DNA of 5,934 bases from a virus (lineage: Duplodnaviria; Heunggongvirae; Uroviricota; Caudoviricetes). This document shows positions 1 through 5,934 of the stretch, in pieces. The position numbers were made by a program, and so were the translations under genes. How positions within the stretch are numbered: the stretch's first letter is position 1; the number at the start of each line of letters is the position of its first letter. The notes beneath the pieces were generated by a model. That model was given only the letters and a program-made list of their open reading frames with translations. It was not told the DNA's origin and did no database searches. Location of the stretch: the IMG/VR virus record IMGVR_UViG_2526164609_000027. The stretch is one strand, 5' to 3'.

Positions 1-225
1 AACGCCCATAATGCGTGCAGTTGCCCGGCATCCAACGCCATTCATGGCCATATCAATAATTTTCTGGTGCGTACCGGGTTGAGAAGCGGTGTAAGTGAAC
101 TGCAGTTGCCATGTTTTACGGCAGTGAGAGCAGAGATAGCGCTGATGTCCGGCAGTGCTTTTGCCGTTACGCACCACCCCGTCAGTAGCTGAACAGGAGG
201 GACAGCTGATAGAAACAGAAGCCAC
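1..225 (-). CDS. insA: IS1 InsA (transposition inhibitor / N-terminal transposase part), 3'-truncated by window edge
   Basis: GTG start at 225-223 (minus). Reading frame translates without stops to [75 protein letters not shown], matching InsA as I recall it. The track ORF 42..254 (-) is the overlapping -1 frame, not the real gene. Confidence 0.85.
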
Positions 226-257
226 TGGAGCACCTCAAAAACACCATCATACACTAA

Positions 258-280
258 ATCAGTAAGTTGGCAGCATCACC
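258..280 (-). repeat. IS1 terminal inverted repeat (IRL, about 23 bp)
   Basis: Sequence ggtgatgctgccaacttactgat on the minus strand; this is the outermost IS1 end and marks the insertion junction at 280/281. Confidence 0.8.
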
Positions 281-517
281 AAGGCGAGCTTCATTTAACG
301 CCTTACGCAGTTGCAGAATTTCAGATTCCAGTTCAGCCACCGTGCGGGAACCAGGAGTACCGAGCCCTTTTCTGGCGGCGGTAACCCATTGTCCTAAAGT
401 GCCTTCAGGAAGGGATAATCGGGAAGCGCCTTCACTGATCGAAAGTTGATTTTCAAGAACCGTTCTGACAGCTTCGGCTTTGAACTCTTTAGAGTAACGT
501 TGGTTTTTTCTGCTCAT
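281..517 (-). pseudogene. IS3-family transposase OrfA (HTH + leucine-zipper part), truncated by IS1 insertion
   Basis: Translation MSRKNQRYSKEFKAEAVRTVLENQLSISEGASRLSLPEGTLGQWVTAARKGLGTPGSRTVAELESEILQLRKALNEARL has the HTH-then-heptad architecture of IS3-family OrfA. In the track ORF (254..517) the last 8 residues GDAANLLI and the stop are encoded by the IS1 terminal repeat, so the native ORF is cut at 280/281. Confidence 0.7.
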
Positions 518-571
518 TATTAGCTCCTTCTGATGCCATTCTATTTCAGGAAGGAGTGTCCGTTAAACTCA
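281..571 (-). mobile_element. IS3-family insertion sequence remnant (outer end plus 5' part of orfA), interrupted by IS1
   Basis: orfA-like ORF preceded on the minus strand by a leader beginning TGAGTTTAACGGACAC..., with an AAGGAG RBS 7 nt before the ATG. The TGA-initial terminus is typical of IS3-family IRs; boundary at 571 is inferred, not verified. Confidence 0.5.
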
Positions 572-802
572 GGCTACCTCACTGTTCGCGTTGCTGTTGT
601 GGCCGACGTTTGTGGTGTCAGCCAAAGAGCAATCTATAAATGGATGGATAACGGAAAATTGCCTCGCACAGAATATACCGGCGAAACAAATTACGCTGAA
701 AAAATCGCTCTTGCATCAAACGGATTATTTTCTGCCGATGCAATTTTAACTATTGGCAGGAATAAAACTACTACGAAAAAGCTGATGGGAGTTGATTCAT
801 GA
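533..802 (+). CDS. Cro/CI-type HTH DNA-binding protein (YdaS-like, Cro-like); start uncertain, 5' end possibly disrupted
   Basis: 89-aa ORF containing an HTH-like segment VADVCGVSQRAIYKWMDNGKLP, immediately upstream of and overlapping (ATGA) the YdaT-like gene, as in the Rac ydaS-ydaT arrangement. The ATG at 533 lies inside the predicted IS3-family terminus and has no SD; in-frame alternatives are GTG 599 and ATG 644, neither with a good SD. Confidence 0.5.
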   Translation: MPFYFRKECPLNSGYLTVRVAVVADVCGVSQRAIYKWMDNGKLPRTEYTGETNYAEKIALASNGLFSADAILTIGRNKTTTKKLMGVDS

Positions 803-1224
803 AAATCAAGCATGAACACATCCGCATGGCGATGAATGCCTGGGCGCATCCGGACGGCGAAAAAGTACCGGCTGCGAAAATTACCAAATCGTATTTCGAG
901 CTGGGAATGACGTTCCCGGAACTGTATGACGACAGCCATCCGGAAGCCCTGGCTCGCAATACTCAGAAAATTTTCCGCTGGGTGGAGAAAGACACCCCTG
1001 ATGCGCTTAAAAAAATTCAGGCGTTGTTACCAGCTATCGAAAAAGCAATGCCACCTCTGCTGGTGGCCCGAATGCGCAGCCATAGCTCAGCCTATTTTCG
1101 GGAACTAGTGGAGACGCGGGAACGACTGGTGAGAGACGCTGATGATTTTGTCGCAGTGGCGATCGCTGGTTTCAACCAGATGAATCGTGGTGGCCCTGCA
1201 GGAAATATTGTGGCTGTGCATTGA
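799..1224 (+). CDS. ydaT: YdaT-like protein (CII-like regulator family of Rac-type prophages)
   Basis: 141 aa, begins MKIKHEHI and ends ...GNIVAVH, matching in length and at both termini my recollection of E. coli Rac YdaT (about 140 aa). Start ATG 799 overlaps the upstream stop (ATGA); GGGAG lies 8-12 nt upstream. Confidence 0.8.
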   Translation: MKIKHEHIRMAMNAWAHPDGEKVPAAKITKSYFELGMTFPELYDDSHPEALARNTQKIFRWVEKDTPDALKKIQALLPAIEKAMPPLLVARMRSHSSAYFRELVETRERLVRDADDFVAVAIAGFNQMNRGGPAGNIVAVH

Positions 1225-1295
1225 CTCGCAATATTCATACCGGATCACTTCCGGCAATTTGTGAGTAAAAAGATTCGGTATCAAAAGAGGTGAGT

Positions 1296-2366
1296 ATGGC
1301 TAACGCCTGGCTCAGATTATGGCATGACATGCCAAATGACCCTAAGTGGCGAACAATTGCCAGGGTGTCAGGGCAGCCAATTGCAACAGTGATGGCAGTG
1401 TATATCCACCTCCTGGTGAGCGCGTCACGAAATGTCACGCGAGGTCACATTGATGTCACGACAGAAGATTTGGCAAGTGCGCTCGACGTGACAGAAGAGG
1501 TAATTGATTCAATTTTGCAGACGATGCAGGGGCGGGTACTTGATGGTGATTTAATCACTGGATGGGAAAAACGCCAGGTGCTGAAAGAGGACAACGGCAA
1601 TATTCCGCAAACCGCAAAATCTCCTGCAGAGCGCAAGAGGGCGCAGCGAGAGAGGGAAAGAAAGCGGGAACAAAATGGCGATTGTCACGGCGCGTCACGA
1701 TATGTCACGCACATGTCACGACGAGTCACGACAGATAAAGATACAGATAAAGATACAGATCAAGAAGATCAAAACACTATGGTCCATGGCGTAAAAAACG
1801 CCACGAACCAGGCAGGGGATGTTCAGACCGTCAATCCTGGTCAGCCAGCAGGCACGACACCGGAAGCCGATTCAGCGTATGCGCTGAAAGCCGATTCGGG
1901 CGCTGTGCAGCAGGTGATGACCGCAAGTCCGGAGCAATCACACCAACTGCAGCAGCCTGAAGCCGATTCCGCCATTCAGCGGGAAGCCGATCGGGTAGTC
2001 CCGGAAAACACCGGGCAGTCTGTGGGACGAGTGGATTATCCGGATGTGTTCGAACAGGTCTGGCGGGAGTACCCGTTGCGTGCCGGGGCAAACCCGAAGA
2101 AATCCGCTTTCAGTGCCTGGAAGGCCAGATTACGCGAGGGGGTGCCACCAGAGGCCATGCTGGATGGCGTGAGGCGTTACGCAAGATACCTGGCGGCTAC
2201 CGGGAAAACGGGAACGGAATTTGTTCAGCGAGCGACGACGTTTTTTGGACCGGACCGGAATTTTGAGAACCCCTGGTTGCTCCCGGTAAGCGGCACGAAC
2301 AACCAGCGTTGTGTGAATCATATTTCTGAACCGGATAGCGAAATTCCGCCGGGCTTCAGGGGGTAA
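1296..2366 (+). CDS. Phage replication initiation protein with DnaT-like (primosomal protein I-like) C-terminal domain
   Basis: Long ORF directly after the cro/cII-like pair. Likely start is ATG 1296 (MANAWLRLWHDMPNDPKWRTIARVSG...) with AAGAGG SD at 1284-1289; the track's GTG 1290 abuts the SD. The C-terminus ...NHISEPDSEIPPGFRG closely resembles the C-terminal tail of E. coli DnaT as I recall it (...SEPDSQIPPGFRG). An acidic low-complexity linker (DKDTDKDTDQEDQ) sits mid-protein. Confidence 0.85.
   Translation: MANAWLRLWHDMPNDPKWRTIARVSGQPIATVMAVYIHLLVSASRNVTRGHIDVTTEDLASALDVTEEVIDSILQTMQGRVLDGDLITGWEKRQVLKEDNGNIPQTAKSPAERKRAQRERERKREQNGDCHGASRYVTHMSRRVTTDKDTDKDTDQEDQNTMVHGVKNATNQAGDVQTVNPGQPAGTTPEADSAYALKADSGAVQQVMTASPEQSHQLQQPEADSAIQREADRVVPENTGQSVGRVDYPDVFEQVWREYPLRAGANPKKSAFSAWKARLREGVPPEAMLDGVRRYARYLAATGKTGTEFVQRATTFFGPDRNFENPWLLPVSGTNNQRCVNHISEPDSEIPPGFRG
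1421..1460. repeat. Iteron cluster 1: four direct GTCAC(G/A) repeats at 10-11 bp spacing (putative initiator binding sites)
   Basis: GTCACG at 1424, 1434, 1455 and GTCACA at 1444; an inverted copy CGTGAC at 1487-1492. Lies within the N-terminal coding part of the replication gene. Confidence 0.6.
1681..1730. repeat. Iteron cluster 2: five direct GTCACG repeats at 10-11 bp spacing (putative ori core)
   Basis: GTCACG at 1684, 1694, 1704, 1715, 1725. The hexamer falls in all three codon phases, so the repeat is at the DNA level rather than a peptide repeat. The cluster resembles cluster 1 over about 45 bp (both end gtcacgacaga). Confidence 0.65.
1731..1770. repeat. Tandem 12-bp repeat (acagataaagat x2 plus a degenerate third copy) with two GATC sites, directly after iteron cluster 2
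   Basis: acagataaagat at 1731-1742 and 1743-1754, then acagatcaagaagatc; GATC at 1758-1761 and 1767-1770. Encodes the acidic DKDTDKDTDQEDQ linker. Flagged as A-rich by eye, not computed. Confidence 0.55.
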
Positions 2367-2406: not shown

Positions 2407-2829
2407 GTGGCAAAAGTTTTTACACAAGAAGAGCGGGAAAAAATTAAAGGGCAGGTTCTTGAACTCGTACGCCAGAGTGGGCGCGAGACGTTACGACAAC
2501 TGGAAGCTAAAACTGGGGCAACAAGATATCTGATGAGCGTTCTGGCCAGAGAGCTGGTTGCCAGTGGCGATGTATACAACTCTGGTTACGGGTTATTCCC
2601 GTCTGAACAGGCGCGTAAGGACTGGCAAAATGCCCGTAAAAAGCTCTCAAGGGCAAAGCTGAAGAAACCATCTGCGGTTGATCCGGACCTTATCTGGTCA
2701 TTACCTGACGGAGAAATACGTCGCTACGACAGTCGCCTAAACATAATCTGTCGCGAGTGCCGGAAGAGCGAAGTTATGCAGCGCATATTGTCGTTTTATC
2801 AGGGTAATTTTCAGGAGGTGATGGCGTGA
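2407..2829 (+). CDS. Hypothetical protein, possibly winged-helix-like DNA-binding N-terminus (function unknown)
   Basis: 140-aa ORF with GTG start 2407 preceded by AGGAGG at 2397-2402. The N-terminal segment LELVRQSGRETLRQLEAKTGATRYLMSVLARELVASGDV looks winged-helix-like by eye; a basic central stretch (RKKLSRAKLKK) follows. No family recognised. Confidence 0.65.
   Translation: MAKVFTQEEREKIKGQVLELVRQSGRETLRQLEAKTGATRYLMSVLARELVASGDVYNSGYGLFPSEQARKDWQNARKKLSRAKLKKPSAVDPDLIWSLPDGEIRRYDSRLNIICRECRKSEVMQRILSFYQGNFQEVMA
2803..2818 (+). promoter_or_regulatory. Conserved translation-initiation motif GGTAATTTTCAGGAGG, copy 2 (inside the 3' end of the upstream gene)
   Basis: Identical 16-mer to 2387-2402; AGGAGG at 2813-2818 is 7 nt upstream of GTG 2826. 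Confidence 0.55.
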
Positions 2830-3131
2830 GGGTGAGAGTCTATATCGCCGGTCCAATGACCGGGTATAAAAATTTCAACCGTGAGGCGTTTCACAATGCG
2901 GAAGAGGAACTGAAACGGGAAGGGCATACCGTCTTAAACCCGGCAGTACTTCCGGACGGGCTGACACAGCCGCAGTACATGGATATCTGCATGGCGATGA
3001 TTCGTTGTGTGGATGCGATTTACATGCTGAAAGGCTGGCAGCGGTCAGCAGGCGCTAAGGCAGAACTGGCGCTGGCGGAGAAACTGGGGCATGCGGTGAT
3101 TTTTCAGGAGACAGCCAGTGTGCAAGACTAA
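2826..3131 (+). CDS. DUF4406-family protein (nucleoside 2-deoxyribosyltransferase-like Rossmann fold)
   Basis: 101-aa ORF with N-terminus VYIAGPMTGY...F and a C-terminal motif GWQRSAGAKAELALAEKLGHAV, recognised by eye as the DUF4406 / NDT-like pattern with a conserved Glu. GTG start 2826 overlaps the upstream stop (GTGA); GTG 2832 is an alternative. Confidence 0.75.
   Translation: MRVRVYIAGPMTGYKNFNREAFHNAEEELKREGHTVLNPAVLPDGLTQPQYMDICMAMIRCVDAIYMLKGWQRSAGAKAELALAEKLGHAVIFQETASVQD
3098..3110 (+). promoter_or_regulatory. Conserved translation-initiation motif GATTTTTCAGGAG, copy 3 (inside the 3' end of the upstream gene)
   Basis: Shares the core TTTTCAGGAG with the two 16-mer copies; AGGAG at 3106-3110 is 7 nt upstream of GTG 3118. 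Confidence 0.5.
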
Positions 3132-3573
3132 TTACCAGGCATTACGTGAACGTTATTCACCAATTCAGGTGCCGGAATGTCCTGTTTGTGGCGATGAAAT
3201 GTCGATACAGCGCATATTTTCCAGAACGCATATTGTGTATGCCTGCACAGGTGAGGGGGATGATGGATATTTTAAAACTGGTCGAACTTTTGCGGATGAG
3301 CATTACCTGAAATCGCGCGTAACCGTCGTTGATGTTAGCGATCCTGACGTACTGGCTTTACTGAAAGAGCTGGAAGTTAAAGACAAACGCATTGCAGAAT
3401 TGACAGATGCGCTTACACAAATGATTAATGCGCACAAAACCACAATTCGTTTTGGTCATGAACGCATAACTGAATGTGGTGGTGATTGCGACTCGCCGGA
3501 AAAGATGATTTCAGAAAATCCGGATATCAGAATGGCAGAGGCTGTTTTGAGAGCAGGAATAAAAACTGAATAA
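3118..3573 (+). CDS. Hypothetical Cys-rich protein (putative zinc ribbon plus coiled-coil segment), function unknown
   Basis: 151-aa ORF with GTG start 3118 overlapping the previous gene by 14 nt. Contains CPVCGDEM...(16 aa)...C and ECGGDC motifs and a heptad-like stretch LALLKELEVKDKRIAELTDALTQMI. Alternative starts GTG 3166 and ATG 3199 lack a good SD. Stop at 3571-3573, 12 bp before the IS66-family end. Confidence 0.6.
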   Translation: MCKTNYQALRERYSPIQVPECPVCGDEMSIQRIFSRTHIVYACTGEGDDGYFKTGRTFADEHYLKSRVTVVDVSDPDVLALLKELEVKDKRIAELTDALTQMINAHKTTIRFGHERITECGGDCDSPEKMISENPDIRMAEAVLRAGIKTE

Positions 3574-3622
3574 TTAAATTTAGCAGTAAGCGTGTAGCAA
3601 GAACCGTATTGACGGGGATGTG

Positions 3623-5161
3623 TTATTCAGTCGGCAGTGCTACGCGCCAGGGGAGCAGTTCGCCGACCCGGTTTATCGGCCAGTCGGCTATGACGTCAAG
3701 TACATAGCGGAGGTAGCTTTCTGGCTCCACTCCGTTCAGTTTGCACGTCCCGATCAGGCTGTACAGCAGCGCTCCCCGCTCTCCTCCATGATCCGAACCG
3801 AAGAACAGGTAGTTTTTGCGGCCCAGACTGACCATCCGCAACGCATTTTCAGCGATGTTATTGTCCGCCTCAGCCCAGCCATCATCTGCATAGTACGTCA
3901 GCGCCGGCCACTGGTTCAGGGCGTATGCGAACGCTTTCGCCAGTTCTGAGTGTCGCGACAGGGTTTTCATCTTTTCACGCAGCCAGCTTTCCAGGGATTT
4001 CAGCAGCGGTTTCGTTTTCAACTGACGTTCGGCAAGGCGCTGCTCCGCCGTCATTCCCCTTATCTCTGCCTCGATGGCGTACAGTTCGCCGATCCGTTTC
4101 AGCGCTTCCTCCGTCAGGGCTGACGGGGTGCGAACGTGCACATCGTGGATTTTACGGCGGGCGTGAGCCCAACAGGCGGCTTCCGTTATCCGGCCATCCC
4201 GGTACAGCTCGTTGAACCCGGCGTATGCATCCGCCTGCAGTACACCACTGAACCCCGCAAGATGGGTCTGCGGATGGATGCCTTTTCTGTCCGGGCTGTA
4301 AGCGAACCACACCGCCGGCGCCAGCGTTGACCCGGCGTTACGGTCGTCACGAACGTAGGTCCATAACCGCCCGGTCTTCGTTTTCTTATTGCCTGGCAAC
4401 AGCACCGGGACAGGCGTGTCATCAGCATGGAGCTTACCGTCAGTCAGCACATAGTCCTGAAGCGCTTCTTCCAGCGGTGACAGTAGCCGGCAGCATGCAT
4501 CCACCCAGCCCGACAGCAGTGAACGACTCAGCTCCACGCCCTGGCGGCCGTACATTTCAGACTGGCGGTACAGCGGGGTGTGCTCTGCATACTTTGAGAT
4601 CAGCACGCGGGCCAGCAGCCCCGGTCCTGCGATACCCCGCTCGATGGGCCGTGAAGGCGCGGGGGCCTGCACGATGGCATCGCACTGAGTACAGGCATGC
4701 TTTTCACGTACAGTCCGGATAACCCGGAAGACGCTGCGCATCAACTCCAGCTGTTCGGCGGCATCCTCACCCGGATAGCTCAGTGAGCCTCCACATTCCG
4801 GGCAGCATGACGCTGCCGGCAGCAGCCGTTTTTCATCGCGGGGGAGTGATTCGGGGAACGGTTTGCGGGTGCGGGTTTGACGCAGCGGGCGCTGCACGGC
4901 CGGGTCGTCAACCCGACCGGTAAGGGTATCACTTTCTTTCTGAAGTGCCTTCAGGTCAGCTTCCATCTGTGCGATACGACGGGAGACTTTTTCGGAGCGG
5001 CTGCCGAAGTTCATCCGGCGCAGCTTATCCAGCTGTGCCTGCAGATGGTCTATTTCGCGTTCACGCTCGTTCAGCTTTTCCAGCAGGGCACGGTTCAGCG
5101 CCTCCTGTTCGGCAAGGAGACGTTTCAGTGCATTGATATCGTCAGGAAGTGAGCTGCTCAT
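3623..5161 (-). CDS. tnpC: IS66-family transposase TnpC (DDE transposase with N-terminal coiled coil and zinc-binding motif)
   Basis: 512-aa ORF. N-terminal coiled-coil-like stretch ([26 protein letters not shown]...), CxxC...CxxC motif (CCPECGG ... CTQC), then a long catalytic region; size and architecture as in IS66 TnpC. Confidence 0.9.
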
Positions 5162-5209
5162 ACCGGGTATATTACCAGGCTCATTCAGCGTCGACCAGGA
5201 TAAAGAGGC

Positions 5210-5557
5210 TTACAACATAGTCAGGGACGTAAGCAGTCTTTTAGGCTGCCGCCAGTCGATACCTTCAAGGAGCATCGCCAGCTGTGCCGGTGTGAGGAAC
5301 ACTTTGCCATCCCGGGCTGACGGCCAGGCGAAGCGGCCGCGCTCCAGCCGTTTGGTCAGCAGACACAGTCCATCGCCGGTAGACCAGAGGAGCTTTACCT
5401 GACTGCCATTACGCCCACGGAAGATAAAAACGTGACCTGACATCGGAGCGTCTTTCAGCGTCGTCTGCACCTTTGCCGCCAGGCCGTTGAAGCCATTTCT
5501 CATATCGGTGATACCGGCAACCAGCCAAATTTTGGTCCCGGAAGGTAACGGGATCAT
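5210..5557 (-). CDS. tnpB: IS66-family accessory protein TnpB (Orf2)
   Basis: 115 aa, MIPLPSGTKIWLVAGITDMRNGFNGLAAKVQ...LAMLLEGIDWRQPK, matching the IS66 Orf2 pattern (e.g. ISEc8 ...IWLVAG.TDMR..FNGL...) as I recall it; ATG overlaps the tnpA stop (ATGA). Confidence 0.9.
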   Translation of the reverse strand: MIPLPSGTKIWLVAGITDMRNGFNGLAAKVQTTLKDAPMSGHVFIFRGRNGSQVKLLWSTGDGLCLLTKRLERGRFAWPSARDGKVFLTPAQLAMLLEGIDWRQPKRLLTSLTML

Positions 5558-5934
5558 CGCTTCAGTTCCTGTATCAGCAGAGTCAGGAGCTTTTCGCTGA
5601 CATTGCCATTAAAGCGGAGCGTCCCGTGCCGGAACGTTACCTCACAGCTGATACTGAGGGTTTCCGGATCCTCTGCGAGCGATTCTGGCTGTTCGGCAGC
5701 TGCATCGAGAGTCACAGGAAGTAGCTGGGGGCTCTCTGAAGAAGGTAATAGCAGCTTTCCCTCGCGCCATTGTTGTCGCCATTTGAACAACAGATTGGCG
5801 TTAATGCCATTTTCAAGAGCAAGTTTTGAGATGGATATCCCGGGTTCACAGGAGGCAGCAACGAGCTGCTGTTTAAATTCGGGAGGATAATTAGGGCAGC
5901 CTTTTCGCCTGCCGGGATTCACATTTTTCTGCAT
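5554..5934 (-). CDS. tnpA: IS66-family accessory protein TnpA (Orf1, HTH); possibly 5'-partial at window edge
   Basis: 126-aa ORF with an HTH-like segment (PEFKQQLVAASCEPGISISKLALENGINANLLFKWRQQW) in first position of the IS66 gene triad. Its ATG is the last three bases of the window, so the true start could lie further out. Confidence 0.8.
   Translation of the reverse strand: MQKNVNPGRRKGCPNYPPEFKQQLVAASCEPGISISKLALENGINANLLFKWRQQWREGKLLLPSSESPQLLPVTLDAAAEQPESLAEDPETLSISCEVTFRHGTLRFNGNVSEKLLTLLIQELKR

Follow-up and report, generated by a model that had tools for sequence, protein, structure and literature searches.

The immunity switch of a Rac/CP-933P-type prophage (order cI - cro - YdaT) was probably removed in Shigella by a deletion of about 5.7 kb that is marked by a copy of IS600; IS1 then hit this copy, and what is left is a cro'-ydaT operon that has no native switch and is most likely silent. 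We put the probability of this reading at roughly 0.9. The window, that is, the whole stretch of 5,934 nucleotides analysed here, lies in a Shigella chromosome and forms the left edge of a decayed lambdoid prophage at tRNA-Ser(CGA)/mtfA. The repressor, the operator/promoter spacer and an intact cro are all absent, and only the downstream YdaT gene of the region is present.

Results

The window matches the reverse strand of CP026807.1 at 100% identity, where it covers positions 4584-10517 of the locus referred to here as L002 (window position x is L002 position 10518 - x), and it is also 100% identical to the draft contig AKNG01000096.1. A sister chromosome, CP026832, belongs to Shigella dysenteriae 14 ATCC 49346 (PMC10132075). 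The 87-aa orfA' product, which is specific to one of the junctions described below, had exact-sequence matches in 15 contigs, of which 10 exceed 1 Mb. The features of the window are collected in Table 1.

Table 1. Features of the window, in window coordinates.
Feature	Position	Strand	Remarks
IS1, left (IRL) end, IS1SD type	1-280	-	IRL tip at 280, insA start codon at 225; runs off the left window edge
chimeric orfA' ORF, 87 aa	254-517	-	79 IS600 OrfA residues plus 8 from the IS1 IRL
IS1 9-bp target-site duplication, one copy	281-289		AAGGCGAGC on the plus strand, GCTCGCCTT on the IS600 strand
IS600, left 301 bp	281-581	-	IRL tip at 581, orfA start at 517, orfA codons 1-79
IS600::cro' chimeric ORF	533-802	+	16 IS600-leader codons (533-580), cro' codons 12-84 (581-799) and stop
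YdaT, 141 aa, intact	799-1224	+	Pfam YdaT_toxin, 38.9 bits (family cutoff 21); overlaps the cro' stop at its start
replication-organiser-like early gene, 356 aa, intact	1296-2366	+	349/356 residues identical to APEC O1
DUF977	2407-2829	+	Pfam
DUF4406	2826-3131	+	Pfam
Ead/Ea22-like	3118-3573	+	Pfam
ISEc22-like IS66-family element (tnpA, tnpB, 512-aa transposase)	3587-5934	-	Pfam; runs off the right window edge

The initial annotation had described an IS1 terminal repeat cutting the orfA frame of an IS3-family element at 280/281, with the IS3-family element inserted first and IS1 afterwards. The junction is exact, and extension to the left recovered both the rest of IS1 and the distal part of the IS3-family element, which is IS600. 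In the source contig IS1 is complete (L002 10238-11005, 768 bp) and has both of its imperfect terminal inverted repeats of about 23 bp, GGTGATGCTGCCAACTTACTGAT and GGTAATGACTCCAACTTATTGAT; the IRL tip, reading leftwards, stands at L002 10238, which is window position 280. Over the full 768 bp it is 99.6% identical to copies annotated as 'IS1-like element IS1SD family transposase', and it contains the insA and insB' frames with Zn_ribbon_InsA/HTH_Tnp_IS1 and DDE_Tnp_IS1 domains (Pfam). The search for target-site duplications at the IS1 ends, suggested together with the annotation, returned a perfect 9-bp repeat: GCTCGCCTT is present at both L002 10229-10237 and 11006-11014, the second copy lying beyond IS1 and outside the window. 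Because this duplication sits inside IS600, which resumes past IS1, the order proposed at the outset was right, and IS1 arrived by ordinary transposition into a pre-existing IS600. The insertion point falls in codons 77-79 of IS600 orfA, just upstream of the A7G slippery run. The chimeric orfA' ORF, which matches HTH_Tnp_1 (Pfam, E=9e-21), thus ends upstream of the frameshift site, so that no OrfAB transposase comes from this IS600 copy.

Taking out IS1 and one copy of the duplication reconstituted an IS600 of 1,264 bp that matches E. coli copies annotated as 'IS3-like element IS600 family transposase' from end to end, with 99.8% identity. It has the size of about 1.26 kb, the TG...CA ends and imperfect inverted repeats (TGAGGT...; TGAGGTAGCC... 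and TGAGGTGTAC...), and it encodes an OrfA of 100 aa with a HTH_Tnp_1 domain and an OrfB of 272 aa with a rve domain (Pfam), the two being in a -1 frame relationship with the A7G run between them. The boundary of the IS3-family element had been placed at about 571. The true IS600 tip is at 581, as given by the end of the inverted repeat and by the start of the prophage homology, which begins exactly at 581 in 25 of the 25 best E. coli matches listed (query, window 1-1300). A target duplication had also been looked for at this end; the flanks of IS600, CAG and CCA, contain no 3-bp repeat, and none appeared when the flank of the second copy (CTG) was included in the comparison. A missing 3-bp duplication is expected if the IS600 copy borders a deletion, and it bears on the history of the element, not on its identity. 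The differing flanks thus argue for an IS600-bordered deletion and not for a simple insertion.

IS600 ends inside cro and not beside it, which corrects the earlier description of an IS3-family leader ending next to the cro-like gene; codons 1-11 of that gene have been replaced. A closely related prophage of E. coli APEC O1 (locus L001) shares this int - tRNA-Ser - mtfA location, and its cro-like CDS (L001 5968-6222, 84 aa) starts 33 nt upstream of the breakpoint, so that codons 1-11 (MNQKTLEDVIK) are lost in the window. By tblastn, residues 12-84 were matched at 100% in all the Shigella loci. The resulting ORF at 533-802 is in frame and retains the helix-turn-helix segment. The fusion is accidental, and no Shine-Dalgarno sequence was found in the sequence upstream of its ATG at 533. 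The intact protein at the cro position of APEC O1 had no match at E<=1 among PDB sequences, and the label 'cro' is hence based on its position and on a sub-threshold HTH_17 match (Pfam). We recommend that the ORF at 533-802 be annotated as an IS::cro' chimera or as a pseudogene, and not as a regulator.

Past the ISs the order is IS600 orfB, a 160-aa Phage_integrase (Pfam) fragment, tRNA-Ser(CGA) and mtfA, and the right end of IS600 (L002 11977) abuts a tyrosine integrase gene that is truncated at its 5' side and retains the 3' part. The cro side is 97.9% identical to the APEC O1 prophage, and the int-mtfA side 98.1%. On L001 the breakpoints fall at 306 and 6001, which leaves a missing interval of 5,694 bp (L001 307-6000). 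In APEC O1 this interval contains 447 nt from the 5' end of int, a DUF4224 gene at the xis position, a 2.5-kb exonuclease gene, DUF1482, dicB, ydfC, a cI-like repressor gene, a 79-bp spacer and the start of cro. The size and the content of the deletion are read here from a relative and not from the true ancestor, and the lost segment may have differed in detail, since lambdoid prophages are mosaic. The APEC O1 repressor is a 139-aa HTH_3 protein (L001 5469-5888) encoded divergently from cro. The cI-cro spacer has three TGWAC-N5-GTTC palindromes (L001 5881-5951; TGAACCATAAGTTCA, TGTACTGTCAGTTC and TGTACTCAAAGTTCA, 33 and 24 bp apart), which are candidate OR1-OR3 sites of this immunity type.

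None of these parts was recovered in the Shigella loci. The cI-like protein had no tblastn match in the window or in the seven Shigella loci, the whole missing interval had no blastn match in the Shigella loci, and no early-left DNA was found in the window or in the 20-kb Shigella loci. In addition, TGWAC-N5-GTTC does not occur in the window, and its only two matches in L002 are both within IS600 orfB. The absence of repressor and operator covers 10 kb on either side of the locus, and a compatible repressor on another prophage elsewhere in the genome is possible. The immunity switch had been judged to be disrupted or displaced. An intact cI-like gene and operator just beyond the ISs would have spoken against this, and a truncated integrase gene was found there instead. 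As the far end of IS600 abuts truncated int, followed by tRNA-Ser and mtfA, the switch is gone rather than displaced. The proposal that the ISs had replaced the repressor and operator region holds as to the loss of both; it does not hold as to the event, which is a 5.7-kb IS600-bordered deletion reaching int and not an insertion into the cI-cro spacer.

Downstream of the junction, YdaT is identical to the APEC O1 protein in 139 of its 141 residues and matches the published CP-933P YdaT structure (PDB 8bt1, E=1.3e-79); with this match and a Pfam score above the family cutoff, the assignment is solid. A better match was obtained with PDB 3c4r ('Uncharacterized protein', E=8.4e-90), so a solved structure of a close YdaT homologue is already available. 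YdaT has been described as the functional equivalent of lambda CII (PMC9986795), and YdaS/YdaT as counterparts of Cro/cII whose genes diverge from that of the repressor; producing them ectopically is reported to be toxic, and a lysogen can depend on its prophage repressor for viability (PMC5917428). RefSeq labels of the orthologues of the replication gene include 'phage replisome organizer' and 'DnaT-like ssDNA-binding domain-containing protein'. At about 1740-1790 this gene contains a short TDKD-coding tandem repeat, and its called length is 352, 356 or 291 aa among sister strains, which suggests repeat-length variation or frameshifts or, possibly, errors of long-read assembly.

A consensus scan, which is a crude and weak test, found no plus-strand sigma-70-like site in positions 1-1400. 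The scan gave two sites in total, with no excess over the mean of 1.6 in shuffled sequences, and both are inward minus-strand promoters, one of IS600 and one of IS1. Furthermore, all the IS genes, int' and mtfA on the left are transcribed away from the operon, and only tRNA-Ser(CGA), about 2.7 kb away, points towards it. With the promoter, the operators, the repressor and the start of cro lost, a scan without a site and IS genes directed away, the early-right operon, which runs from cro' and ydaT to the Ead/Ea22-like gene, is most likely silent. The suggestion that IS-derived or read-through promoters might drive it has no support from the sequence.

The decay of the prophage extends beyond its switch. 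Just past the Ead/Ea22-like gene the window enters the ISEc22-like element, with the inverted repeat tip GTAAGCG at 3587 and 99.5% identity to annotated ISEc22. Further on in L002, the late region has been replaced by a second block made of IS1 and the right part of IS600, with a truncated DUF968 gene on one side and a tail-fibre-assembly gene on the other. That the prophage is cryptic, as the initial annotation supposed, is confirmed by this deletion of the late region and by the IS66-family insertion. In S. dysenteriae 14 ATCC 49346 (locus L005) an IS110-family element is present at the ISEc22 tip (L005 ~5410-6927, corresponding to window 3589/3590).

The second block lies outside the window, about 8 kb past its right end in the source chromosome. 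It repeats the junction between IS1 IRR and the IS600 right part over 1,740 bp (L002 306-2045) with 2 SNPs and in the same orientation; its IS1 IRL abuts the tail-fibre-assembly gene with no IS600 left part, and its IS600 IRR abuts the truncated DUF968 gene. As the two blocks have the same orientation, the prophage remnant is bracketed by 1.7-kb direct repeats. The second block may have originated when IS600::IS1 moved as one piece, or when IS600 copies underwent gene conversion, with an IS1 adjacent deletion following in either case. S. dysenteriae 14 ATCC 49346 also has a third IS in the IS600 right part, 73 bp beyond IS1, which makes a triple nest; this is an IS3-family element of about 1.3 kb (L005 11079-12387) with an OrfA of 108 aa and an OrfB of 295 aa.

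Lastly, we analyzed the conservation of the junctions. Four junction 40-mers (cro'/IS600L, IS600L/IS1, IS1/IS600R and IS600R/int') are identical in five complete chromosomes, and S. dysenteriae 14 ATCC 49346 is among the at least five complete chromosomes that share the junctions. The cro'/IS600 and IS600/IS1 junctions are also identical in two draft contigs, which brings the number of independent contigs to seven. With this agreement and the near-identity of both ISs to known mobile elements, the nest is not a product of chance. None of 5,426 complete E. coli genomes, screened for intermediates, covered the cro'/IS600L or IS600R/int' probes at 80% or more. Junctions common to the Shigella contigs and absent from these E. 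coli genomes point to one ancestral event in a Shigella lineage. The lone E. coli match that spanned the IS600/IS1 probe had 84.5% identity and another length, and was discarded as not being this junction.

Discussion

Our analysis suggests that an IS600-bordered deletion dismantled the immunity switch, with one end now at cro codon 12 and the other 447 nt inside the integrase gene. This deletion could have been produced by recombination between two directly oriented IS600 copies or by an adjacent deletion associated with IS600 transposition, and the data fit either route. IS1 later entered orfA at codons 77-79, making the 9-bp duplication and abolishing the production of OrfAB by this IS600 copy. 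The repressor and PR would have been lost together, so the YdaT/cro module could not be de-repressed, which would make this a survivable way of losing the switch. The general point would be that loss of a repressor is safe if the same event also takes the promoter that it targets.

A simple nested insertion into the cI-cro spacer, with a switch displaced and potentially functional, is the default interpretation when only the window is considered, and IS1 by itself is indeed a simple insertion. This interpretation is refuted by the truncated integrase, tRNA-Ser and mtfA past IS600, by the lack of any cI or operator in the 10 kb to the left and right, by the missing cro codons 1-11 and by an IS600 with no 3-bp duplication, and we consider it extremely improbable. 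The chance that the junctions are false, arising from IS1/IS600 repeats that were collapsed or mis-joined during assembly, appears just as slight. IS copies are a classic cause of misassembly, and the draft contigs L007 and L008 do end inside IS1; against this, five complete chromosomes, assembled independently of one another, share identical copies of the four junction 40-mers, two of the junctions recur in two drafts, long-read and draft assemblies agree, and the 9-bp IS1 duplication is the signature of a real transposition.

The question of expression bears on the second half of our main reading. The operon could still be expressed, either from a cryptic promoter facing out of IS600 or IS1 or by transcripts reading through, for instance from tRNA-Ser, with the chimeric Cro' and YdaT retained by selection. 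The chimeric ORF is in frame and keeps its helix-turn-helix segment, neither YdaT nor the replication gene is disrupted and both are 98-99% identical to their counterparts in an intact prophage, and tRNA-Ser(CGA) is oriented towards the operon. The intact YdaT and replication ORFs are compatible with a recent event as well as with residual expression or selection. We nevertheless regard continued expression as unlikely: no plus-strand sigma-70-like site was found in 1-1400, where the two sites detected are both on the minus strand, ATG 533 has no Shine-Dalgarno sequence, and read-through would need to run for about 2.7 kb in the antisense direction through int', IS600 and IS1. Furthermore, the frameshifted or shortened calls of the replication gene in some sister strains fit neutral decay, and unrepressed expression of the YdaS/YdaT type has been reported to be toxic (PMC5917428). 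A somewhat fainter chance is given to the idea that the 2.04-kb IS600::IS1 was mobilised by an IS600 transposase acting in trans and that the bracketed cro'-ydaT-replication segment is a retained, possibly excisable or amplifiable module whose intact YdaT regulator still serves the host. In this regard, a YdaT-type transcription factor of Rac is reported to regulate host operons (PMC11879457). Loss of the switch by an IS600-marked deletion, leaving a silent operon, is thus the reading that we retain.

The module that was lost is alike, in order and logic, to lambda cI-OR-cro-cII, as judged from the intact relative: a divergent repressor and cro, three operator-like sites, a cII-equivalent and replication genes. 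Unlike lambda, there is no sequence homology to cI or Cro, and the switch no longer exists in the window. Other close systems are racR-ydaS-ydaT of Rac (K-12) and its counterpart in the cryptic prophage CP-933P (O157:H7), in which YdaT likewise follows a small HTH gene at the cro position. The intact prophage of APEC O1 resembles both in its upstream divergent HTH_3 repressor and in a short spacer with three palindromic sites, whereas the window has neither repressor nor spacer nor the 5' end of cro. Additionally, the protein at the cro position is HTH_17/AlpA-like and not a member of the Pfam YdaS family. The Rac prophage sits at ttcA, and integration here is at tRNA-Ser/mtfA. No description of this prophage locus at serU/mtfA was found in the literature searched.

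The event itself corresponds to IS-driven decay as described for Shigella. IS1, IS2, IS4, IS600 and IS911 have expanded in all Shigella (Hawkey et al. 2020, PMC7373316), and the reference chromosomes carry 229-348 IS each (PMC7373316). At such a density, insertion of one IS into another and deletions bordered by ISs are to be expected. The elements involved here are the same (IS1 and IS600, >99.5% identical), as are the host group and the outcome, namely gene truncation, IS-bordered deletions and an IS within an IS (PMC7373316), and we see no difference in kind from that process. Every component is a known element (>99.5% identity), the genome is public, and what is seen is a textbook case of routine IS-driven decay in Shigella, with little significance beyond annotation. 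Within it, this prophage remnant, which lost its immunity switch through an IS600-bordered deletion, is a clean and resolved example of how IS expansion dismantles prophages.
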